32,000 nt of DNA, from positions 1 to 32,000 of the forward strand of contig NZ_LWLG01000014.1 of NCBI RefSeq assembly GCF_001652585.1. The letters are read 5' to 3'. The notes below the pieces were generated by a model. That model was not told the DNA's origin, did not search any database, and saw nothing but the letters and a program-made list of their open reading frames with translations. The DNA comes from Thermosulfurimonas dismutans (GTDB lineage Bacteria > Desulfobacterota > Thermodesulfobacteria > Thermodesulfobacteriales > Thermodesulfobacteriaceae). Of the stretch, positions 1 to 31,567 are shown in pieces (the first letter of the stretch is position 1; each line of letters begins with the position of its first letter). A program made the translations under genes and the position numbers.

Positions 1-315
1 GGAGATGGTGGAGTGGTCGGGAACGGGATCGGTAGCGGAAAGGCCGAGGAAGCGGCGGTAGAAGAGGTTGCCGTAGAGCATGATTTCCATTTCGGGGTCG
101 GAGTGACCGTAGATTTGCTGGATGATGAGGATTTTGAGCATGAGGAGGGGATCGTAGGCTGGGCGTCCTACGGAGGAGGGATGGAGTTTGGAGAGAATGC
201 GTTCGAAGGGTTTCCAGTTGATGAGGCGGTCGAGTTCTAGGAGGAGGTCATCAGGGAGGTTTTGGTAAAGAATATTTTCCCCGAAAGTGAGTTGAGTATG
301 CTGTTTCTTATACAT
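1..315 (-). CDS. IS5/IS1182-type transposase, N-terminal part (gene runs off the left edge of the window)
   Basis: It is absent from the ORF track because it has no stop in the window. The reverse-strand ATG at 315..313 translates to MYKKQHTQLTFGENILYQNLPDDLLLELDRLINWKPFERILSKLHPSSVGRPAYDPLLMLKILIIQQIYGHSDPEMEIMLYGNLFYRRFLGLSATDPVPDHSTIS. This fits the GRPxYDP..MLK.L.LQ..Y..SD...E......FR.FLGL...PDHST pattern of the DUF772 transposase N-terminal domain. An AAAGGAG motif lies 6 nt upstream of the ATG. Confidence 0.8.
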   Translation of the reverse strand, partial: MYKKQHTQLTFGENILYQNLPDDLLLELDRLINWKPFERILSKLHPSSVGRPAYDPLLMLKILIIQQIYGHSDPEMEIMLYGNLFYRRFLGLSATDPVPDHSTIS

Positions 316-364
316 GCTCAACTCCTTTAGTTTTTAAGTGAGTTTATTATGAGAAATAAAATTG
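1..364 (-). mobile_element. Right-hand end of an insertion sequence (transposase plus about 50 nt of terminal sequence). The exact terminal inverted repeat is not determinable from one end.
   Basis: The transposase CDS starts at 315. The neighbouring NERD-like ORF terminates abruptly at 365, so the element boundary is inferred to lie between 316 and 364. Confidence 0.5.
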
Positions 365-550
365 TCAATCTGATTTTGCAAAGGTCTCAATATAATAAGC
401 AGAATCGTCTTCTCCGGAATCTCCTCTTTTAATTGCATATATTTCCCGTTCTATGAGAAATTTCTGCTTCGGAGAGAGATTGTAAGAAGACAATAATTTT
501 TTCAGTTCTTTAATATCTCTTTCTCTTGAATCACGATCTTTTATGATCAT
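365..550 (-). pseudogene. N-terminal fragment of a NERD (nuclease-related domain) protein, apparently truncated by the IS insertion
   Basis: The 61-aa ORF ends ...EREIYAIKRGDSGEDDSAYYIETFAKSD*. From memory, this matches the conserved N-terminal leader of NERD proteins (..K.G..GE.D.AYYI.....KDS..), which normally precedes the HDLR...QIDH nuclease core. The core is missing and the ORF stops at the IS junction. Confidence 0.5.
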
Positions 551-620
551 ATTTGATTATCTCTACAACCAAATTATGTATTTTTTTCTCATTTTCGAAA
601 TACGAATCTAATATCTTGCT

Positions 621-692
621 GATATGTATGACCTGTAAGCGTGTGGGTAAAAAAATATCGAACTGAATATTTGTTTTTAGGCAAAGTCATAT
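621..692 (-). repeat. Island repeat copy C (imperfect palindrome, attC-like or REP-like), immediately downstream of the 698..1195 ORF
   Basis: The minus-sense sequence reads ATATGACTTTGCCTAAAAACAAATATTCAG...ACCCACACGCTTACAGGTCATACATATC. It shares GCCTAAA..CAAAY..CAG on the left and CCRC..GYTT..GKCRT.TATAT on the right with the copies at 1438..1534 and 2427..2506. It has terminal inverted repeats TATGAC/GTCATA. Confidence 0.55.
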
Positions 693-697
693 TCTAT

Positions 698-1195
698 TTA
701 GTCTGGTCTGAATTTTTCCTTTGCTGCCATTACTAGGTGACGAAGATAATCAATATATAGTTTAGCTAGATTTGGGATCGAAGTATCATTTATTTCCTGT
801 CCTAGGTGGCACTTAGGTGCATCCGGAAAATGTAAACTTACGAAACCAATATCTTGGGGAAGTTCTACATAATATTTTTCTATAGAACCATCAGGGAGTT
901 GAACTTCCCATCCGCTACCACCAAGTTTATCGCCTATGAAGAACCCTTTTGCATTTGGTGGTGGAGGACCAAAGCGGGTTAAATCTTCAGGAATTTGGAG
1001 CTGCCTTATATAGATACGGGTTGAGGTTTCTAACAATCCTTCTTTGAGTATCTTTGAACGTAATTTATAGAAATATTTCATAAGAGAATCATTTTTCATT
1101 TCTTCTCTATATTTCTCGTACCAAGCATCAAAATCTGGTTCTATAGAACGGAGATTTTGAAGAACATTAGTAACAGCACGACCAAAAACAATCAA
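698..1195 (-). CDS. Hypothetical protein with no recognisable family. The true start is probably upstream at ATG 1323 across a frameshift.
   Basis: The 165-aa ORF in the track uses a TTG start. The same frame stays open upstream to 1294 (YYKKAEETLKTAEQGLEDLIKGPPERKLSGLRN...) with no ATG or GTG. An ATG with a plausible RBS sits at 1323 in another frame. Confidence 0.55.
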   Translation of the reverse strand: MIVFGRAVTNVLQNLRSIEPDFDAWYEKYREEMKNDSLMKYFYKLRSKILKEGLLETSTRIYIRQLQIPEDLTRFGPPPPNAKGFFIGDKLGGSGWEVQLPDGSIEKYYVELPQDIGFVSLHFPDAPKCHLGQEINDTSIPNLAKLYIDYLRHLVMAAKEKFRPD

Positions 1196-1437
1196 ATTTC
1201 TTAGACCTGATAGCTTTCTTTCTGGTGGTCCTTTAATTAAATCCTCTAAACCTTGTTCTGCTGTCTTCAGTGTTTCTTCAGCCTTTTTATAATATCAGTT
1301 GTAGTATGACGAAAAACTGACATCTCTTAATCCCTTTAAATTTTTGTGATTTCGGCTAACTTATTTGTATCCGCATCATAAATGTATTCTTCATTTGCGC
1401 ATATAATTCATTCATTTCTTTCATTTGTTTCTTTTAT

Positions 1438-1534
1438 GATATAATGACAAAGCTCGGTGGCGTCTGCGAAGCGTCAGCGAAACACGCATCCACTGCAGCG
1501 ATTTGTTATGTAGTATTTTCTTCTATATTTAGGC
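1438..1534 (-). repeat. Island repeat copy A, overlapping the 3' end of the 1506..2411 ORF and the downstream spacer
   Basis: The minus-sense sequence reads GCCTAAATATAGAAGAAAATACTACATAACAAATCGCTGCAG...TTCGCAGACGCCACCGAGCTTTGTCATTATATC. The left box (GCCTAAA, CAAAT, CAG), the TTCGCAGAC box and the right box align with copies B and C. Confidence 0.55.
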
Positions 1535-2411
1535 CAAGTTTCTTGGCAATAGCTCTTACTCTTTTCTCTAATGATTCACATAACTCGGTATAATCATTAT
1601 ATTCAATTCGATTTATCGCCGCGACATCAAAGTGAACCGCAGTTCCCTTTCTTGCAAGAAGCACAACCTCTTTATTTGCTCTATGAGCCCATCCTACCTC
1701 ATAGTATACATTCGGCCTCTCTCCTGTTAAATCAGCGACAACAAATGCAGCGGATTCAATTTGAGTTAATATCTCCGCTGTAACAGTACGATTATGTTGA
1801 ATTTGATCTACTCTTACAGGCTTAAATCCAAGTTTAGTCAATGTAGGTTCTATTGCCACATAATAAGCATCTCTAAATTCGGGCTGAAAGCTCATTATGA
1901 CAAAGACATTTCTTGCAGAAACTTCATCTGGTATAGGAGTTGGAGCAAAAGGCCCTGGAAGGAAATTCTCTTTGACAGGAACAACTTGCTCTTCAGCCTT
2001 AGGCTCACCTGTTACTTCTCTATGACTTTTAGGAAACTTATCTTTTATAAGGTCGAATAGCTGTCTAGATTGTTCTCTTGTAAAATTTTGAGTCTGAAAA
2101 GTAAAAATTCTGTTCTGAGCAGTATAGCTCATGTTTATTGTTTTACGAGGATTCTCGTTAATGACAATTGATGCATTAAAACTATGAAATTCGCACTCTT
2201 CCGGGATTTGATTTATATCATTTCTAACTTGATCAATAGTTCCTGTTACTTGGATATCATCAAAAATGATGTTAACCTGAATTTGCCCTGCATTTTTCAA
2301 TAGTTCACTTGTTCGTAATTTATCTATTGCATCAATAAAAACTTGAGGTATATCCGGTAATGATTCAACAAAATACTGTCTCAGAAAACGATTTAGATTC
2401 TGTATAGGCAT
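1506..2411 (-). CDS. Two-domain protein: unknown N-terminal domain plus a C-terminal nucleoside 2-deoxyribosyltransferase-like / TIR-like Rossmannoid domain
   Basis: This is a 301-aa ORF. Its C-terminal roughly 135 aa read NVFVIMSF..(helix)..KPVRVDQ....ILTQIESAAFVVADLTGERPNVYYEVGWAHRANKEVVLLARKGTAVHFDVAAINRIEY. This fits the pattern 'F.S.SF / ..I..ad.viaDlt...pNV.yE.G.A...gK.vill......PFD....r...Y' of NDT-like/TIR-like effector domains. AGAGGAAGGAAG lies upstream of the ATG. Confidence 0.6.
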   Translation of the reverse strand: MPIQNLNRFLRQYFVESLPDIPQVFIDAIDKLRTSELLKNAGQIQVNIIFDDIQVTGTIDQVRNDINQIPEECEFHSFNASIVINENPRKTINMSYTAQNRIFTFQTQNFTREQSRQLFDLIKDKFPKSHREVTGEPKAEEQVVPVKENFLPGPFAPTPIPDEVSARNVFVIMSFQPEFRDAYYVAIEPTLTKLGFKPVRVDQIQHNRTVTAEILTQIESAAFVVADLTGERPNVYYEVGWAHRANKEVVLLARKGTAVHFDVAAINRIEYNDYTELCESLEKRVRAIAKKLGLNIEENTT

Positions 2412-2426
2412 TCTTTCTTCCTTCCT

Positions 2427-2506
2427 CTATATAACGCCCAAACTCAGCGGCCCGCTGTATAGTAGGTCTGCGAAAAGGAAGTTTGCCTCTTTAGGCGTAG
2501 CTATAG
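2427..2506 (-). repeat. Island repeat copy B, immediately upstream of the 1506..2411 ORF
   Basis: The minus-sense sequence reads CTATAGCTACGCCTAAAGAGGCAAACTTCCTTTTCGCAGACCTACTATACAGCGGGCCGCTGAGTTTGGGCGTTATATAG. Its ends are imperfectly complementary (CTATA..ACGCC..CAAAC versus GTTTG.GGCGT.TATAG). There is an internal CAGCGG/CCGCTG palindrome. The ORF ATG follows 17 nt after the right end. Confidence 0.55.
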
Positions 2507-2729
2507 AAAGCCCCCCTCTTTGCACTAACTTTTCCTTATTAATTGGATATTAGTCTCTACCCTTTAATAGGGATATTTGAATTTCCAGTAACTTATGTGC
2601 TTAATGCAGTCAAGTTTCAAGTTCGGGTTTTTGGCGGAATTAATGTCTGATAACGTATTTTAAATGCGGAAAACTTCACAAAAATGGCTTAAAATTTTTT
2701 GGTTTGTTGGGAAGCAGGAAGGTAGGGGA

Positions 2730-2757
2730 GGTGGCCGGTGTGGAGAAACCGGCCACC
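2730..2757. terminator. GC-rich hairpin between the AT-rich island and eno; candidate eno terminator or boundary hairpin
   Basis: A perfect 10-bp stem pairs GGTGGCCGGT (2730..2739) with ACCGGCCACC (2748..2757) around an 8-nt loop, 17 nt past the eno stop. The T-run (GTGTATTTTCT) lies on the plus-sense side, not the eno-sense side, so directionality is ambiguous. Confidence 0.45.
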
Positions 2758-2774
2758 GTGTATTTTCTGGAAAA

Positions 2775-5036
<2,262 letters not shown>

Positions 5037-7728: not shown

Positions 7729-8653
7729 AGCCAGAGTCCTTCTTCTCTTTTCGGGTGGTCTTGACAGCATACTAGCCGGCAAGGTCCTTCAGGCTCAGGG
7801 CCTCGAGGTACTGGCAGTGCGTTTCATAACGCCGTTTTTTCATTGGCAGTGGCGAGGTCGGGAGGAAGAATTCGACCGGATGCTGCGTGAAAAATACGGT
7901 TTTCGGGGACTCATCCGAGATATAAGTGAAGAATACCTGGAGCTGATGAAGGATCCTCCGCACGGTTTCGGGTCCGCGGCCAATCCCTGTATCGATTGCA
8001 AGATCCTCATGTTACGGAAGGCTCGGGAGATGCTTTCGGAGGTTGAGGCGGATTTTCTGGCCACCGGGGAGGTAGTGGGCCAGAGACCCATGAGCCAGCG
8101 TCGGAACATCATGCGCCACATAGAGAAGGAGGCCGGGGTTACCGGGATCCTCCTGCGTCCTCTCTGTGCCAAGAGGCTTCCGCCCACCGAACCCGAAAAG
8201 AAAGGGCTTGTGGACAGAGATAGACTCTATGACTTTTGCGGTCGAGGTCGAAAGCCCCAGATGCGGCTAGCCGAGGAGTTCGGGATCACGGATTATCCCT
8301 CTCCGGCCGGGGGCTGTATCCTGACCGATCCCCAGATCGGTGAACGGCTGAAACGTCTTCTTGCCCTTAGAGGTGGTCTTTCCGTGAGAGAGGCCGAGCT
8401 GGCTCTTTTCGGGCGCCACTTCATCGAAGACGGTTTCTGGTTGATCCTCGGCCGCAAAGAATTCGAAAACCGTAGGCTCCAAGAATTGGCCCGTCCTGGG
8501 GATCGGCTCTTTAAGATCCGTGGAATCCCCGGGCCCACGGCTCTTTTAGTGGAAGGCCGAGGGGAGGCCGAGAGGGTGCGGGAGATCCTCAAGCGTTACA
8601 CCCCCAAGGCCCGTGGGCTTCCAAAAGTCGAACTCGAGGAGATAACGCCATGA
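7721..8653 (+). CDS. PP-loop ATP pyrophosphatase, ThiI/MnmA-like tRNA sulfurtransferase family
   Basis: The 310-aa ORF has an N-terminal SGGLDS PP-loop (LLLFSGGLDS) and a CIDCK cysteine motif. It overlaps the recN stop by 8 nt. Confidence 0.6.
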   Translation: MLKARVLLLFSGGLDSILAGKVLQAQGLEVLAVRFITPFFHWQWRGREEEFDRMLREKYGFRGLIRDISEEYLELMKDPPHGFGSAANPCIDCKILMLRKAREMLSEVEADFLATGEVVGQRPMSQRRNIMRHIEKEAGVTGILLRPLCAKRLPPTEPEKKGLVDRDRLYDFCGRGRKPQMRLAEEFGITDYPSPAGGCILTDPQIGERLKRLLALRGGLSVREAELALFGRHFIEDGFWLILGRKEFENRRLQELARPGDRLFKIRGIPGPTALLVEGRGEAERVREILKRYTPKARGLPKVELEEITP

Positions 8654-25141: not shown

Positions 25142-26070
25142 GTTCTAGAAATCTCTTCTTTTTGACCGGACTTCTCGTGCTTCTTTTGGTGATGTACTTT
25201 GTGGCCCAGCGTACGGTGAGCCCCCCGGGGATAAAAGAGGCCCTGCTGGTTCCCCTAGGCCAGCCTGAATGGCAGAGGGTAGATCGTCTGGAGATCTTTC
25301 TGGGTTCCGAGCCGGAAAAGAAGCTCTTCTTGGTAAAAAAGAAGACCGGCTGGGAGGTCTTAGGATCTTCTCCGGAAGAAAATTATCCCCGTCCGGCCAA
25401 AAACTCTCTCATAGATAATTTTCTATCGGACCTCAGCCAACTCTCTGGTGAGGAGAGGGTTTCGGGTAAATCCTTCTGGGAGCGATTTTTACTTACCGAT
25501 GAGAAGGCCCTGCATGTGGTGGGGTGGCGGGCGGAGCAAGAAGTTTTCCATCTATTGGTGGGCAAGAGAGGTCCTTACTGGGACAGCACCTTCGTGAGGC
25601 TTAAGGATTCGGAAAAGGTCTATCTCGTTCCCGAGAATCTCCTCGCCCGCTTTGAGATCTGGAAGGAACAACCCACGACACCCTCTGTGGACCCCTGGAT
25701 AGACAAAGAAATTCTTGTGGTTAATCTGCCGGATTTAAAAAAACTGAGCTTCGTTTGGAAAGGCAAAGTCTTGTGGCGTTTGGAGAGAGAAAAAGACCGC
25801 TGGTGGGTTGAGAAGGAAGGCCGTCGCCGAGAGGTCAACGAGGTCGAGAAAAAGTTGGGAGAGGTTTTTCCGCTTTTTGCGGAAAAGGTTTTAAGGCCCG
25901 AGACTTTCCGGAAGGAAATCGGCCGTCTAGAACTTGAGACCAAACTGGCTACCAGAGAGAGCCTTTCCTTTGGAGTTTCTTCCCAAAAAGGGCGTTATTT
26001 GGCTAAAAAGGGACCTTACGTGTACGAGCTTGGATCAGAGGTCGTGGAAAAGCTCCGAAAGCTCTTTTAG
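25138..26070 (+). CDS. DUF4340-like protein (usual partner of GldG-type ABC systems)
   Basis: The 310-aa ORF has a single N-terminal TM helix, and its start overlaps the upstream gene (ATGA). Its position after gldG matches the usual DUF4340 context. The assignment rests on context and general pattern rather than a strong motif. Confidence 0.5.
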   Translation: MSSRNLFFLTGLLVLLLVMYFVAQRTVSPPGIKEALLVPLGQPEWQRVDRLEIFLGSEPEKKLFLVKKKTGWEVLGSSPEENYPRPAKNSLIDNFLSDLSQLSGEERVSGKSFWERFLLTDEKALHVVGWRAEQEVFHLLVGKRGPYWDSTFVRLKDSEKVYLVPENLLARFEIWKEQPTTPSVDPWIDKEILVVNLPDLKKLSFVWKGKVLWRLEREKDRWWVEKEGRRREVNEVEKKLGEVFPLFAEKVLRPETFRKEIGRLELETKLATRESLSFGVSSQKGRYLAKKGPYVYELGSEVVEKLRKLF

Positions 26071-28373
26071 CGCACACAGACCGCACGGATCTGTTTGAGA
26101 TCGGTATCTCCGGCAAGTACTTTAAAGATACCGTCCTGTTTCAAGGTGTACATGCCGTTTCGCATGGCGGCCTCCCGGATCTCGTGTACAGGGGCAGCCT
26201 TAACAATGAGTTCCCGCAGTTCGTCGTTGGGGATCAAGAGTTCGTGGATGGCTATCCTTCCGCGATAGCCCGTATGGTTGCAACGGCTGCATCCCACTGA
26301 CCGATAAAGGGTAGCCTGTTTGACTTCTTCTTCGGTGAGGGGTTTTAGAGGATGTTCTCCGTACTCAAAGATGAGCTCCTCGATTTCCTTATCCGTGGGA
26401 TGGTAAGGTTTCTTGCAATCTGGGCACAAGCGTTTGGCTAGTCGCTGGGCTAAGACCCCCAAAAGGGCGTCTGCAAAATTGTAAGGATCGATTCCCATGC
26501 CTAGGAGGCGAGTAACTGTTTCCGGGGCACTGTTGGTATGGAGGGTGGAGAAAACCAAGTGTCCGGTAAGCGAAGCCTCGATGAGGGTGTGGGCCGTTTC
26601 TTCGTCTCGGGTCTCACCGATCATGATGATGTCTGGGTCTGCTCGTAGGAAGGCCCTGAGCACCCTGGCAAAGGTCAACCCGATTTTGGGTTTTACCTGG
26701 ACCTGTCTCAGCCCCTCTTGCACGATTTCTACCGGATCTTCAGCGGTCCAGATTTTCTTGTTGGGCCGATTAATATAGTGAAGGGCGGCGTGCAGGGTGG
26801 TGGTTTTACCGGATCCGGTAGGTCCTACTACTAAGATCAGGCCGTAGGGCATTTCCAGCAACTTCTTGAATTGTTCCATGACCTCCGGCCGGAGACCTAT
26901 TTCCTCAAGGGTTCGGGCCTGGACTCCTCCCAGGATCCGCATGACCACGTCTTCGTTGTTTTCGATGGTAGGCAGAGTGGCCACTCGGACCTCAAAGACC
27001 TTCCCTGTCCGGGTACGGAACTTGATCTTTCCATCCTGAGGAAGTCGTTTTTCGGCAATGTCTAGCCCGGCCATAATCTTGTAACGGGAAATAAGTGGTC
27101 TTTTCAAAGAATAAGGGACCATTTGGAAGGGAATGCATTCCCCGTCTATGCGAAACCTTATCTGTGCTCCCCGCCGCCCTGTGAGACTTTCGATGTGGAT
27201 ATCGGAGGCCCCGCGATTATAGGCCTCTTCAAGGATATAGTTGGCCAACTGGACCACCACACTTTCCTGATCCTCTGGAAGGGGCTCTTCTTCTTCGTGA
27301 GCCTCTTCTTCCTCAATGAGCTCTAACTCAGGGGCTTCTGGCGGCTGAAATGTAAGCTTTCCATAATAGAGATCGATTAGTTTTAAAATATCTTCTCTTA
27401 TGCCTACTGCGACTTCAAATTCTTTCAAATTTAGAATCTTTTTGGCCTGTTCGATTTGATCCAGATTAAAAGGATCTTCCGTAAGGAGGAAGATTTTTCC
27501 TTCTTCCTCCAGCGGAGCGATCAAAGTTTGACGAAGAAAGTTTTCCTTGACGCCTTCCAGGCACTTAGGTTTTATTACGATCTTATCGTCTGATATTTCT
27601 ATAAACGGACAGTTGTAGAACCTGGATAGGGCTTCTCCAATTTTATCTTTAGAAATGTGGAATTTCTCTATGAGTACGCTTTCTATACTGCTATTAGTTT
27701 CCTTGGCTATTTCTGCCGCTTCCTGACAAATAGAAGGAGTAATTATTCGCTCTTTAAGGAGAAATTTTAATCTTCTACAATTGGTAGTAATATTTTTTAA
27801 ATATTCTATCTTTTCTTGAATGGTATCCTTTTCTTCTACTTCATTGGCCAATTGAATATATAATCTTAGAGCTTCATCAAATTCGTAGGCCTTCTCAAGG
27901 TATTCCGCTAACAATTTTTTGAGATTTAATATATCTAATTTATTTTCTGCCGTCGCCGGGATTTCTTTTAAAGCCTGCCTTATAATATGGGCAGCCCTTT
28001 CAAATTGTCCTATATTTCCTAGACATTCAGCCAAATTTTTGTATACCTCTAAAGTTTTAAAGCCCTCTTCCAATAATTCTTCCAGAATTTTAATGGCCTG
28101 TTGGTAAAAGGCTCCATCTTTTAAAATCAAAGCTTTTTTGAGTCGTTCTTCCTGTGGGGTCTCCTCCAAAACCTCCTCGGAAACTATGCCTTTGAAGGCC
28201 TCTAGTTCGAAGATCCTTTTCTGGATCTCTTTTTTGAGTTCGTCTTGCTCTTCTGAAACCAGATTCTTAAGTTCACGGTATAGTTCTAGAGCTTCATCCA
28301 CTAGCCCCTGCTTGGCATATAGCTCAGCCTCTTTTAATTTGTTTTCTATGTAGGCTTTGATATCAGTATCCAT
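26067..28373 (-). CDS. PilB/GspE-class secretion ATPase with an N-terminal TPR-like extension and a T2SSE_N-like domain
   Basis: The ORF is 768 aa. The C-terminal core has GASDIHIE, Walker A GPTGSGKTTT, the Asp/His boxes and the tetracysteine CPDC...CSRC, which is typical of assembly ATPases (PilB/GspE) and not of PilT. Residues 1 to about 200 form about four TPR-like helix pairs (e.g. AELYAKQGLVDEALELYRELKNL and VYKNLAECLGNIGQFERAAHIIRQALKE). Residues about 205-290 resemble a GspE N-terminal domain (...IEKFHISKDKIGEALSRFYNCPFIEI). An acidic linker EEEEAHEEEEPLPEDQE follows. Confidence 0.85.
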   Translation of the reverse strand: MDTDIKAYIENKLKEAELYAKQGLVDEALELYRELKNLVSEEQDELKKEIQKRIFELEAFKGIVSEEVLEETPQEERLKKALILKDGAFYQQAIKILEELLEEGFKTLEVYKNLAECLGNIGQFERAAHIIRQALKEIPATAENKLDILNLKKLLAEYLEKAYEFDEALRLYIQLANEVEEKDTIQEKIEYLKNITTNCRRLKFLLKERIITPSICQEAAEIAKETNSSIESVLIEKFHISKDKIGEALSRFYNCPFIEISDDKIVIKPKCLEGVKENFLRQTLIAPLEEEGKIFLLTEDPFNLDQIEQAKKILNLKEFEVAVGIREDILKLIDLYYGKLTFQPPEAPELELIEEEEAHEEEEPLPEDQESVVVQLANYILEEAYNRGASDIHIESLTGRRGAQIRFRIDGECIPFQMVPYSLKRPLISRYKIMAGLDIAEKRLPQDGKIKFRTRTGKVFEVRVATLPTIENNEDVVMRILGGVQARTLEEIGLRPEVMEQFKKLLEMPYGLILVVGPTGSGKTTTLHAALHYINRPNKKIWTAEDPVEIVQEGLRQVQVKPKIGLTFARVLRAFLRADPDIIMIGETRDEETAHTLIEASLTGHLVFSTLHTNSAPETVTRLLGMGIDPYNFADALLGVLAQRLAKRLCPDCKKPYHPTDKEIEELIFEYGEHPLKPLTEEEVKQATLYRSVGCSRCNHTGYRGRIAIHELLIPNDELRELIVKAAPVHEIREAAMRNGMYTLKQDGIFKVLAGDTDLKQIRAVCVR

Positions 28374-28381
28374 CTTTTAGC

Positions 28382-29605
28382 CTATTTCCATTTGGTTATA
28401 GAAAAAAGAAAAACTTCTTCTCCTTCTATTAGAGCCTTTCCTATAAAAGGTTCTTTTGCGGACCTCCAGATCGTATTCGGGTCAACATTAATTAGTTTAT
28501 AGTCTTCCACTAAGACGACTAACCCTTTGTCGTTTTTCCATAATATTACTAATTTCTTTTCGCTGGTTAATGACTTGTTGGTTTTTATTCTTAGTTTTTT
28601 GAGTTCATGTTCTTCTTTTTCAGCCAGCTCACCTTGTAATTTAGGTTTTATTTTTCCAAAGAGCTGTTTGAGGAATCCTTTGCCTCTTAAAAGTTTTAAT
28701 GGGAATTGTCCCTCATGTAAATAAGGACGCCACCAATCTTCTATATCACTGGCGAAGGCAACTTCATCTATAGGTATTAGTATGGTCTTATTCAGAGTTT
28801 TGCAGAGGAGTCCCTCGTTTGCTTCTATTTTGATTTGACTTTTGGTTGTTTCTTCTTTTTGCTTGATAAACTCTTTTATCTCTTTTTCTCTTTCTCTTAG
28901 TTGTTTTTCGTAATCCTTGTTTAAAATTAATAGTGTTTTTTCTATTTCGTATTTGCTTTTTGTTAGCAACTTTTTTATAGCTCCTTTTTTGTTTCGGTCT
29001 AAAAGTTCTTCGATAGCTACTAATCTCTGATAATCTTTTAATAGTTGATTGATAAGAAGGTCGATCTTTGTTTGGTGTTCCCCTTTGGGAGATTCCTTGT
29101 GTGAAAAATCTTTAATAATTTCTTCAAGCTTACTCTGTTCTATTACTTCTTTTTCAATTTTAGCCTTGAACTCCTTTAGATCTTTTTCGATATCTTTGCC
29201 TTCAAAATTATAGGCATAAATAATGTTGCCTAATTGTTTCAAGTGATCTAATTTTTCCGGAGTAAGATTTGCGGGATGTTTAACCTCTTTCAAATAGGCT
29301 TCAAGGAGAGAGATGAGTTCTTGATTAGTGGCATCTAAAGATTGGGTCTTTAGTTTTTGGCATTTTTTAAGGGCCTTTTCGCTTATTTCTGGGACGATTT
29401 CCCACTCAAGAGTTAGGATTTCCCCTATCAGTTCTTCTAGATCCTTTTTGAGAGCTTCTTCTTCTCCCTCGGCAATAGGTTCGAGTAGCGAATAGGTTTC
29501 TATTTCTTCTTCTTTTAACTCCGTCTTTTTGGCTTCCTTAAATATTTTATCTAAGGCCTTTTCCACTTCTAATTCTAGATCTTGTATGTTTTCTTTTTCG
29601 CTCAT
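28382..29605 (-). CDS. Coiled-coil protein (K/E-rich) with a C-terminal globular domain of unknown family
   Basis: The 407-aa ORF has an AGGAG RBS (AGGAGAAAATAATG). Residues 1 to about 265 are heptad-like and K/E/L-rich. Residues about 265-407 switch to a beta-rich pattern (TILIPIDEVAF...KLLRGKG...KKLVILWKNDKGLVVLVEDYKLINVDP...FIGKALIEGEEVFLFSI). Its stop lies 8 nt before the ATPase start. Confidence 0.7.
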   Translation of the reverse strand: MSEKENIQDLELEVEKALDKIFKEAKKTELKEEEIETYSLLEPIAEGEEEALKKDLEELIGEILTLEWEIVPEISEKALKKCQKLKTQSLDATNQELISLLEAYLKEVKHPANLTPEKLDHLKQLGNIIYAYNFEGKDIEKDLKEFKAKIEKEVIEQSKLEEIIKDFSHKESPKGEHQTKIDLLINQLLKDYQRLVAIEELLDRNKKGAIKKLLTKSKYEIEKTLLILNKDYEKQLREREKEIKEFIKQKEETTKSQIKIEANEGLLCKTLNKTILIPIDEVAFASDIEDWWRPYLHEGQFPLKLLRGKGFLKQLFGKIKPKLQGELAEKEEHELKKLRIKTNKSLTSEKKLVILWKNDKGLVVLVEDYKLINVDPNTIWRSAKEPFIGKALIEGEEVFLFSITKWK

Positions 29606-29702
29606 TATTTTCTCCTAGGCAAACTATGCGATTTTGGTTTACGTCTCCGTTGGGGCTTTACCCCAAACCCCATGATTTTATCGCCCCAATTTTATCTTTA
29701 AC

Positions 29703-29734
29703 CCGAATTGAGCGTTCAGAATCGCTCAATTCGG
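29703..29734 (-). terminator. Perfect 12-bp hairpin immediately after the mglA stop (attenuator, stabiliser or partial terminator; no clear U-tract)
   Basis: CCGAATTGAGCG (29703..29714) pairs with CGCTCAATTCGG (29723..29734) around an 8-nt loop. A second hairpin, TTGGGG/CCCCAA, lies at 29650..29666, upstream of the next gene's RBS. Confidence 0.4.
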
Positions 29735-29735
29735 C

Positions 29736-30353
29736 CTAGTCACTATATTTAAGATATTTTTGGACTATATATCTTATACTCATTTTACTTATGGTTTTTA
29801 GGGTTTCAAAAACACCTATGCCTTTGGGAGCCACAGCTTCAAAGTAAGGGGCCTTGAGTTCCCGATTTAGATCTTCTTGTAATTCTTCTATGGTAAGAAT
29901 GGGGATACCTATTTCTCCGAGATCCCTTTTGTTATACTGAAAAACCAGGGGTATCTCATGAATATCTATGTTCCATTCTAAAAGATGTTCCTTTAGATCT
30001 TCAAGACTCTCCTTATTTTTCTCTCGGCGTATGCGAAGGGAATCTGCCACAAAGACTATGCCATCGACTCCTTTCAAAACGATCTTTCGGGCATACTTAT
30101 AGAGAGATTGCCCGGGAACAGTATAAAGCTGTAACCGGATATCTAGATCTTTTATTTTGCCCAGGCTTAGGGGTAAAAGATCAAAGAAGAGTGTTCTTTC
30201 TCCCTTGGTTTCAATGGTTAGAAGTTTCCCCCTAAATTTTTCCGGGAGAGAATTATATATGTAGAGAAGATTAGTGGTTTTCCCTGATCTTCCCGGACCA
30301 TAGTAAACTATTTTGCAGTATATTTCCTTTTTCTTGAGATCGATTAAGGCCAT
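29736..30353 (-). CDS. mglA: MglA-type Ras-like small GTPase
   Basis: The 205-aa ORF is collinear with Myxococcus MglA: KIVYYGPGRSGKTTNLLYIY (P-loop), GERTLFFDLLPLSLG (intrinsic Arg), LYTVPGQ (catalytic Gln), LKGVDGIVFVADS, QYNKRDL and AVAPKGIGVFETLK. Confidence 0.93.
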   Translation of the reverse strand: MALIDLKKKEIYCKIVYYGPGRSGKTTNLLYIYNSLPEKFRGKLLTIETKGERTLFFDLLPLSLGKIKDLDIRLQLYTVPGQSLYKYARKIVLKGVDGIVFVADSLRIRREKNKESLEDLKEHLLEWNIDIHEIPLVFQYNKRDLGEIGIPILTIEELQEDLNRELKAPYFEAVAPKGIGVFETLKTISKMSIRYIVQKYLKYSD

Positions 30354-30737
30354 TTATAATTCCTGGATTTGTTTGGCTAGTTGATTAGCTTTTAGACGTA
30401 CTAGCCCCAAAGGTACTTCGTCTGTAAATACTGTAACTAGAATTATATCGTCATTAATTTTGCTCAAGTGTATATTATCTTTTTTGCCCTTGTGATACAG
30501 AATGCTGAAATCGTCCTCGCCTAGAATTCTGGCGATCTGATTAGTAGCTCCGAAATTGGCAGCCGCCAGGGCCGCTAAAGAAGTGACATCTACATCTGCA
30601 TTTTTACCACTTGAGACTAAGATGTTTCCAGCTTCGTCTATCAAAAGAGCCAAGTTTACTCCAATGCTTAGTAAGTAGTTGCGAAGTAGTTTTTCTAGCC
30701 TAGACACCTTTTCTGGTGTGAGAACACGTATACCCAT
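30354..30737 (-). CDS. mglB: MglB-type Roadblock/LC7 domain protein (the cognate GAP of MglA)
   Basis: The 127-aa ORF contains LLIDEAGNILVSSG...VDVTSLAALAAANFGATNQIARILGEDDF...ILVTVFTDEVPLGLVRLKANQLAKQI. This parallels M. xanthus MglB (FLVDKNGQLISSAG...TTSLASLTAGNVAA...LGLVRLRIKKA). Its stop abuts the mglA start (TAAATG). Confidence 0.88.
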   Translation of the reverse strand: MGIRVLTPEKVSRLEKLLRNYLLSIGVNLALLIDEAGNILVSSGKNADVDVTSLAALAAANFGATNQIARILGEDDFSILYHKGKKDNIHLSKINDDIILVTVFTDEVPLGLVRLKANQLAKQIQEL

Positions 30738-31567
30738 TAGTAGACCTCTTATCCATTTAACACTTATCAGGATAATATGGATAATAGGAAAAAATCAAGT
30801 CCTTATTTTTCTATAGGAAAGGCGGTTAATGGTATGTAAGCTTTGAATTTGATGGAAAAACTTTCCTAAGCTTATGCATATTGGATGTTAATATGCCGGC
30901 CATGGATGCTTTAATCCTACTAAAAAACTTATGCTTAGGAAGCCGCTGCCCATCTTGAACACCCATTAATGGGGCGCTAAACACTAGATATTCGTGACCT
31001 AGAAATACCAAGTTTTTCAGCAGTTATTTGATGCCTGCCTTTTAATGACCCCCTGAATACGAAAAGCCGCGGTGAATCGGGTCTTGGTGATAAAAATGGG
31101 CGAGGCCTCTGGGCTATTCCTTTTACGCTATCGTAGAAGTTAAAGAAAGTTCTCCCGGACCGTCTTACCAAAGGTGAGGGAGAATAGTTATACAACTTCA
31201 AAGGAGAATCCATTAAAGTTGTGGTCCTTGACCCAAAGATTCTATAAGCCTCTCCTGTTGTTTGTTTGGAAGGCCGAGTTAGGGGGATGGCCTTTGGGGA
31301 GCTCCTTGGACAACAGGAGGCCTCTCTCAGGCCTTTCATGGAAAGCCTCAGAAGCTATAGTCCTTTTTTCGGACCGCCCAGGCTTTCTGGAAGGGACAAT
31401 AGTTTCGCCTTGGATTACATGATTTTCGAAAAGCTGACTTTTTTGTCAGGAAAAATCCTCGTAAAAGAAAGGTGGAAAAAGAAGCCTAGGGATTTAATTG
31501 CTTCTTAGATGAGCTTTTAAAATAGCTTTTTCTTCATTTAACCCTCTTTAATCCTCAAAAATTTTCC

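Follow-up and report, generated by a model that had tools for sequence, protein, structure and literature searches.

What is the origin of the short AT-rich island that follows the enolase gene of Thermosulfurimonas dismutans? We examined the first 32,000 nucleotides of contig NZ_LWLG01000014.1 (assembly GCF_001652585.1; this whole stretch is referred to as the window, and all positions are given in it). A reading made from the letters alone (the sequence-only reading) had singled out the island as an array of genes resembling integron cassettes, lacking an integrase and punctuated by three copies of an attC-like repeat. We find that the island is very probably a horizontally acquired and decaying fragment of an integron cassette array, of the type termed CALIN (attC sites grouped together without an integrase) or SALIN (single attC site lacking an integrase), which lies downstream of the enolase gene and in the same orientation. 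The idea of a cassette array without an integrase is upheld by one solid attC site, one 3′ half-site and a cassette that occurs in true arrays elsewhere, but the three-copy repeat on which it had been founded is not.

An integron cassette is made up of a gene without a promoter and, after it, an attC site. The bottom strand of attC, when single-stranded, folds so that R″ pairs with R′ and L″ with L′, leaving extrahelical bases, and the integron integrase cleaves R′ between G and TT to give cassette excision or insertion. The consensus of R″ is RYYYAAC, with a conserved AAC, that of R′ is GTTRRRY, with a conserved GTT, and boxes and spacers are laid out as 7-5-3-1-6...6-3-6-7. What is conserved in attC sites is the architecture and not the sequence, and a covariance model is therefore required to recognise them.

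Results

One attC site of complete architecture in the window

Two covariance models were built from sites outside the window. The first, R1, was made from 16 class-1 attC sites delimited by eye in class-1 integron arrays, with 7 bp of pairing between R″ and R′ and 3+6 bp between the L boxes; the aadA1 attC was confirmed against plasmids (1,962 records at ≥99% identity). The second, R2, was made from 15 metagenomic attC sites from L109, L110 and L006 (L-numbers denote comparison contigs or loci). The R1 search was run with filters off. Position weight matrices for the 5′ and the 3′ halves of attC were additionally made from 80 unique foreign sites. As a positive control, R1 recovered the attC sites of L105 and L106, most of them outside its training set, at 28–41 bits; as a negative control, R2 reached at most 13.2 bits in 96 kb of unrelated DNA. 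The GTT of R′ is invariant in both training alignments (16 + 15 = 31 attC sites).

When R1 was run on the 32-kb window it returned a single full-length match, to the minus strand of 1439–1511, which scored 30.6 bits (E 1.1e-5), and nothing else below E = 4. R2 scored the same stretch at 44.9 bits (E 5e-10), and it was the sole match below E = 0.3 with both models in 64 kb (both strands). The 5′ half was also the top 5′ half-site of the window (30.0 bits; runner-up 7.9), and the 3′ half scored 17.8 bits, second to the site described below, where chance gives ≤10.4. We conclude, from two covariance models trained on foreign sites, that this stretch, site B, is an attC site.

It can be seen from its sequence, ACATAAC AAATC GCT(G)CAGTGG ... 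CCACCGAGC TTTGTC ATTATAT, that L″ (GCT(G)CAGTGG) pairs with L′ (CCACCGAGC) leaving an extrahelical base, and that the spacers AAATC and TTTGTC are of 5 and 6 nt. R″ (ACATAAC, 1511–1505) keeps the AAC, fits the consensus at six of seven positions and overlaps the TAA stop codon of the TIR-like 301-amino-acid gene. R′ (ATTATAT, 1445–1439) has an A in place of the invariant G; the equivalent base in the attC at 902 in L109 is G. Site B is therefore attC-derived yet deviant at the defining base. It is 66% identical overall to the L109 attC at 902 and has 20 identical nt in a row, TAACAAATCGCTGCAGTGGA, in common with the attC at 4278 in L109. The minimum free energy structure of its bottom strand (−10.7 kcal/mol) contains the expected long-range helix, with a z of only −0.47; this is a weaker fold than that of real attC sites, and two relatives have z −2.3 and −4.5.

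A second site of which the 3′ half is intact

Site C lies 918 nt from site B, in the same orientation. Its 3′ half (2450–2429), CCGCTG AGT TTGGGC GTTATAT (CCGCTGAGTTTGGGCGTTATAT), was the top 3′ half-site of the window at 27.8 bits, compared with a training median of 29.1 and a best chance match of 10.4, and over a stretch of 29 nt its identity to the 3′ half of the attC at 20–80 in L109 is 86%. The GTTATAT at 2435–2429 had been named as R′ in the sequence-only reading, the sole box assignment there that proved correct. Further upstream GGCAAAC (2487–2481) is a candidate R″; the half-site matrix found no 5′ half above chance at site C, leaving one of the two halves recognisable. R1 gave no match at site C, and R2 scored 2429–2487 at 12.4 bits, rank 2 (E 0.35 for the whole window, 0.027 for the island). 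This full-site score is insufficient alone because unrelated DNA reaches 13.2 bits. The half-site score of 27.8 bits against ≤10.4 by chance leads us to conclude that site C is a genuine attC 3′ half with a decayed 5′ half.

The GTTATAT of site C forms the left boundary of a cassette that carries the 301-amino-acid gene. The reverse complement of GTTATAT, ATATAAC, agrees at six of seven positions with the R″ of site B (ACATAAC), which fits a single cassette between the two sites. The protein matched the PADLOC TIR effector model (2.1e-14), the only route by which any cargo protein reached a curated family threshold; its Pfam matches were weak (PF05014), and neither a PDB sequence search nor NCBIfam gave matches with the cargo proteins. 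Full-length homologues are of 294–307 amino acids. A 49%-identical homologue (P0022), itself a cassette in L006–L008, is flanked by attC matches, one of which runs across the stop codon as it does here; other homologues are found in ordinary defence-island settings without attC sites.

The three segments are not copies of one repeat

The sequence-only reading had rested on three segments, 621–692, 1438–1534 and 2427–2506, as copies of one imperfectly palindromic element. Smith–Waterman scores of the three against 500 dinucleotide shuffles gave p = 0.50, 0.44 and 0.06, so that, on sequence similarity alone, the segments fail the statistical alignment whose failure the reading itself had said would refute it, and MAFFT produced scattered identities without any coherent alignment. 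Folding of both strands gave no segment a structure more stable than its shuffles (z = −1.2, +0.75 and −1.2). The heptamer GCCTAAA, taken as a conserved left box, is found at 676–682, 1528–1534 and 2490–2496, and its count in the window (5 observed, 5.7 expected) is that of chance. Nor is it R″: the copy at 1528–1534 is coding sequence of the 301-amino-acid gene, and the true R″ in 1438–1534 is the ACATAAC of site B, 17 nt downstream. A 9-mer reported as common to two of the segments, TTCGCAGAC, is indeed present at 1462–1470 and 2466–2474, but is within chance expectation, as with at most one mismatch it occurs 11 times in the window against 6.0 expected and 6 of 100 shuffles reach 11.

A search of 300–2800 with an attC covariance model had been proposed as a check. 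Our two models matched strongly at 1439–1511; the two segments other than that of site B stayed under 3.5 bits with R1 even in a 2.5-kb search.

An alternative explanation, already raised in the sequence-only reading, is that the segments belong to a lineage-specific REP/MITE-like repeat (repetitive extragenic palindrome or miniature inverted-repeat transposable element), or are chance motifs in an ordinary defence island. An intergenic location, imperfect palindromes and TIR-like and NERD cargo typical of defence islands would all suit such an explanation. However, the segments align no better than chance, a repeat search of the 32-kb window found no repeat family and no further copies, one segment fits the attC model at E 5e-10 and another lies inside a conserved cassette (see below). 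We therefore reject a repeat family and consider this whole explanation extremely improbable.

A cassette shared with metagenomic arrays has lost most of its attC

The segment at 621–692 is part of the cassette that follows site B. From 1424 down to 574 the window aligns with L109 (971–1816) at 90.5% identity across 852 nt, and likewise with L110 and L113. This homology has its start at the crossover of the attC before it; upstream of that point the attC sites are only 66% identical and the genes unrelated. In L109–L113 the counterpart of this cassette sits between attC sites of 30–47 bits. Because the homology to L109 runs through 621–692, we assign this segment to the 3′ untranslated region (UTR) of the cassette. 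Neither covariance model matched it at E ≤ 10 in the 2.5-kb search, its fold gave z −0.4 to −1.2, and it falls inside the block common to L109–L113; we reject it as an attC site. A stretch within it, GCCTAAAAACAAA, presumably resembles the attI1 core, a likeness that we set aside since the segment is conserved cassette UTR.

The cassette encodes a relative of the phage lambda Ea47 protein. The three co-directional minus-strand open reading frames (ORFs) of the sequence-only reading (365–550, 698–1195 and 1506–2411) are all present, but 698–1195 is really part of 698–1323, which carries a frameshift. Relative to L109 there is a 1-nt deletion near 1285, because of which we regard the gene as a pseudogene, and an in-frame 3-nt insertion 14 nt upstream of the deletion. 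Intact relatives are of 207–208 amino acids and at most 91% identical; the 91% relative occurs in the co-directional arrays of L109–L113, with attC matches of 26–49 bits. It is MHA1337980.1, deposited from a Promethearchaeota metagenome-assembled genome, an assignment that is soft because the contigs are ≤5.9 kb.

At its downstream end the homology stops 6 nt into the L109 cassette's own 58-nt attC. The window keeps ACATAA (579–574) of this R″ and continues with TTTGGT, the rest of the attC being missing as if the stretch from the C of AAC through the G of GTT had been deleted at 574/573. The junction ACATAA/TTTGGT looks like two cassettes fused through loss of the attC interior.

The gene beyond this junction is represented by its first part only. 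A phmmer search with the 61-amino-acid ORF gave 39 relatives, mostly of 250–375 amino acids and all matched over residues 1 to about 57 only, and in six of six relatives tested a NERD domain (PF08378) begins at about residue 41. A distant NERD gene adjoins a 51-bit attC in L142 and is itself a cassette. The gene in the window probably belongs to a third cassette, joined on by the deletion. Homology stops at ...SAYYIETF, near 382, from which the end of an IS5-like insertion sequence (IS) was placed. Its transposase domain is PF05598 (DUF772, 1.8e-20), and a promoter-like TTGACA-16-TAAACT runs from 368 to 341 on the minus strand, in the IS end before the transposase start. Because the homology ends at about 382 and the promoter-like end of the IS lies just beyond, we conclude that the IS has cut the NERD gene. 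A fourth candidate attC, 'Z', after the 61-amino-acid ORF (GATTGAC AATTT...), had no covariance model support and is better read as the −35 region of the transposase promoter; we rejected it.

Some IS families target attC sites, and in the control plasmid L101 an IS110-family element lies within the attC of the smr cassette (2330–2635). The element in the window is IS5-like and so of a different family.

Related attC sites in metagenomes

A gapped pattern derived from site B and the L109 attC at 902 retrieved 42 metagenomic loci (L122–L163), all 42 of which the class-1 model confirmed at 30–57 bits; many lie in multi-site arrays. The G+C content of the arrays in L109–L113 is 0.34–0.36 and that of the island 0.35. 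Homologues of the integron integrase IntI, 47–50% identical to IntI1, adjoin two of the 42 loci. In L130 the homologue (50% identical to IntI1; 2077–3054) is on the same strand as a B-type attC at 7871–7942, 4.8 kb apart, and in L151 integrase and attC are instead arranged divergently. When IntI1 was searched by tblastn against plasmids for diverse integron classes, the matches were saturated by class 1.

The island and its flanks

The positions of the features are listed in Table 1. As claimed in the sequence-only reading, the island is AT-rich: G+C is 0.34–0.38 across 501–2500 and about 0.55 in the flanks and beyond 2700, and its extent is about 316–2720. Coding potential is on the minus strand throughout. 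The absence of a visible intI was likewise confirmed, as IntI1 gave nothing by tblastn at E < 1 in the 32-kb window, which ends 316 nt past the island, inside the IS, so that this search covers one side only. The island is not a complete integron: besides the missing IntI homologue, the enolase gene occupies the position of intI and attI.

The enolase is 82–84% identical to those of named Thermosulfurimonas species, and its relatives put the host beside that genus in the Thermodesulfobacteria. In three metagenomic contigs the enolase DNA is 97.5% identical and the gene order is enolase, HU, alaS; their similarity to the window ends at the enolase stop codon. The comparison with relatives that had been proposed as a check thus finds the island absent, and because it is missing from so close a relative we consider it accessory DNA.

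Table 1. Features of the window, in order of position.
Feature	Position	Strand	Description
IS5-family insertion sequence end	1..381	-	Carries the N-terminus of the transposase (from 315 to past the window edge) and a promoter-like end
Leader and NERD gene start	365..573	-	61-amino-acid ORF 550-365, the first ~56 codons; truncated near 382
Cassette 2	574..1444	-	Leader, Ea47-like gene and 3′ UTR, ending in its own R″
Third supposed repeat copy	621..692	-	Conserved 3′ untranslated sequence of cassette 2
Ea47-like gene	1323-698	-	PF26900 (Phage_lambda_Ea47); 165-amino-acid ORF 1195-698 continues upstream in another frame
attC site B	1439..1511	-	Complete architecture; matched end to end by two covariance models
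Cassette 3	1445..2434	-	From TTATAT after the site C crossover to the first base of the R′ of site B
301-amino-acid gene	1506-2411	-	Intact; C-terminal TIR/nucleoside-deoxyribosyltransferase-like domain
attC remnant, site C	2429..2487	-	3′ half intact, 5′ half degenerate, loop almost gone
AT-rich non-coding leader	2488..2720	.	Between the enolase flank and site C
GC-rich hairpin	2730..2757	+	Just past the enolase stop codon; terminator-like only as read on +
Enolase gene	4046-2775	-	Right flank of the island
Sugar-kinase gene (PfkB family), then recA			Beyond the enolase gene, right flank
T2SSE ATPase gene	26067-28373	-	768 amino acids; TPR and MshEN N-terminal part in the second AT-rich segment
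K/E-rich ORF	28382-29605	-	407 amino acids; no family
Small Ras/Arf-like GTPase gene	29736-30353	-
Roadblock/LC7 gene	30354-30737	-

The hairpin just past the enolase stop codon is missing from the 97.5% relative. On the minus strand, that of the enolase gene and the cassettes, it is followed by TCCCCTACC rather than by a T-run. Because it is terminator-like only on the plus strand, it is plausible that transcription of the enolase gene reads through into the cassettes, which have the same orientation, and the TIR-like gene, the sole intact gene, could be transcribed in this way.

Between the enolase flank and site C, the 2488–2720 leader contains no ORF of ≥40 amino acids wholly inside it and, site C excepted, no similarity to the metagenomic arrays compared. 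Upstream of site C, 2559–2599 resembles the leader of the Ea47-like cassette (1331–1367), as ATAAGTTA..GAAAT.CAAA..TTAAAGGG; the alignment has a p of only 0.14, and the stretch may be what is left of a further cassette leader. On the minus strand, a weak match resembling attC at 2648–2712 (R″ TCCCAAC, R′ GTTATCA; 6 bits, E 1.5) falls exactly on the boundary between GC-rich and AT-rich composition. Given this score and the lack of support from the half-site matrices, we rejected it as an attC site.

Rfam and tRNA scans of the window gave no matches, and none of its own proteins was on record in an exact look-up. A second AT-rich segment (27000–31000, G+C 0.33–0.40) carries the minus-strand gene set given at the end of Table 1, and its drop in G+C falls inside the T2SSE ATPase gene.

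Discussion

Read along the minus strand, the island comprises half an attC (site C), the TIR-like cassette, attC site B, the Ea47-like cassette with its deleted attC, and the start of the NERD gene, cut by the IS5-like element. The last is probably a third cassette that became fused to the Ea47-like one when the attC between them was deleted. The whole may have come in as a piece of an array, with an IS perhaps taking part, and not one cassette at a time.

CALINs and SALINs have been described as products of integrase loss or of rearrangement mediated by transposable elements (Cury et al., Loot et al.; PMC9024848, bioRxiv 10.1101/2022.09.11.507474), and insertion by attC × attG recombination has been proposed for SALINs and small CALINs (bioRxiv 10.1101/2022.09.11.507474). 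Could the cassettes have been inserted one by one downstream of the enolase gene by the latter route? The locus has much of the published profile, with a co-oriented site right after a highly expressed housekeeping gene, no integrase and two or three cassettes (bioRxiv 10.1101/2022.09.11.507474). However, attC × attG recombination leaves only TTRRRY on the 5′ side, and because L′, spacer and R′ are all kept here as a 27.8-bit half-site the route is unlikely at the left boundary. Some 230 nt more of AT-rich foreign DNA and a foreign hairpin also separate site C from the enolase gene, and an IS occupies the other flank. We consider one-by-one insertion highly unlikely; a better fit would be a rearrangement associated with an IS, or the uptake of part of an array.

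The fragment shows several signs of decay, namely the G to A change and the weak fold of site B, the loss of the 5′ half of site C, the deletion of the third attC, the frameshift in the Ea47-like gene and the cut in the NERD gene. Is it nevertheless an active CALIN, with cassettes that can be mobilised in trans by an integrase elsewhere in the genome or on a co-resident element? CALIN cassettes are reported to be usable by exogenous IntIs (PMC9668308), site B has the full 7-5-3-1-6...6-3-6-7 architecture and matches both models, and site C retains a 3′ half containing GTT. Against this, site B has ATT where 31 of 31 training attC sites have GTT and folds no better than shuffled sequence, site C is without a recognisable R″ or L″, a deletion has removed the third attC, a frameshift affects one cargo gene and the window contains no IntI. 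Activity of this kind is in our view distinctly unlikely. Given the crossover A and weak hairpin of site B, the lost 5′ half of site C and the missing third attC, we predict instead that this array fragment is no longer mobile.

Some points weigh against a cassette-array origin. Site B is the only statistically solid full attC, and the full-site score of site C, 12.4 bits, is within the chance range of the 96-kb control (≤13.2 bits). One full attC, one co-oriented half-site at 918 nt and one deleted site compare with a CALIN rule of at least two attC sites within about 4 kb; the output of a standard pipeline might be one lone attC (SALIN) or no cluster. More of the array, or an integrase, could lie beyond the IS or elsewhere in the genome, and, should the contig be metagenome-assembled, the boundary between enolase gene and island, judged here from sequence alone, may be a chimeric assembly join.

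Integrons, mostly CALINs, are known in a wide range of phyla, Asgard archaea among them, and a cassette with 92% identity across domains is already on record (PMC9668308). Our literature search found no report of integrons in Thermodesulfobacteria. The locus is an example of cassettes that came to lie, and decayed, outside integrons in a lineage not known for carrying them, and displays attC erosion in three stages: change of the crossover G, loss of a 5′ half, and a deletion that fuses two cassettes. It ties a thermophile chromosome to a pool of AT-rich cassettes that is widespread and has members on contigs binned as Asgard archaea. It is conceivable, though we think it rather improbable, that the cassettes reflect recent exchange among very different hosts of the same anoxic sediment or vent community, with the TIR-like gene possibly a working single-gene defence cassette; if the archaeal binning is right, such exchange would be a natural case of cross-domain cassette traffic. 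Current models are extended by these observations, not changed.

How does the island compare with known systems? It resembles described CALINs and SALINs in having attC-bounded, co-oriented, promoterless cassettes, no nearby intI and a small array beside a transposable element. It differs in that one fully detectable attC, a half-site and a deleted site make it borderline under the default rule, and in the A at the invariant crossover G of site B. With the attC family of L109–L113 and L122–L163 it shares the R″-spacer-L″ and L′-spacer-R′ of site B, the second cassette at 90.5% identity, and G+C content. Members of that family score 30–57 bits with the class-1 model and fold well (z −2.3 and −4.5), whereas site B has 30.6 bits and z −0.47, and here the cassettes sit in a Thermodesulfobacteria chromosome of 55% GC rather than in an AT-rich array-bearing genome. 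The junction at 574/573 is like that of fused cassettes known in mobile integrons, such as blaOXA-10/aadA1 in L103 (...GGCTAAAACAAAGTTAAAC...), in that two cassettes are joined by an attC stub; unlike there, the downstream NERD partner is a putative cassette and no intact version of the junction was found. Cassettes are known to carry defence genes (bioRxiv 10.1101/2024.07.02.601686), and the compact TIR-like, NERD and phage-derived Ea47-like genes of the island, which join the cassette-borne candidate defence genes, resemble the defence cassettes of sedentary chromosomal integrons described there.

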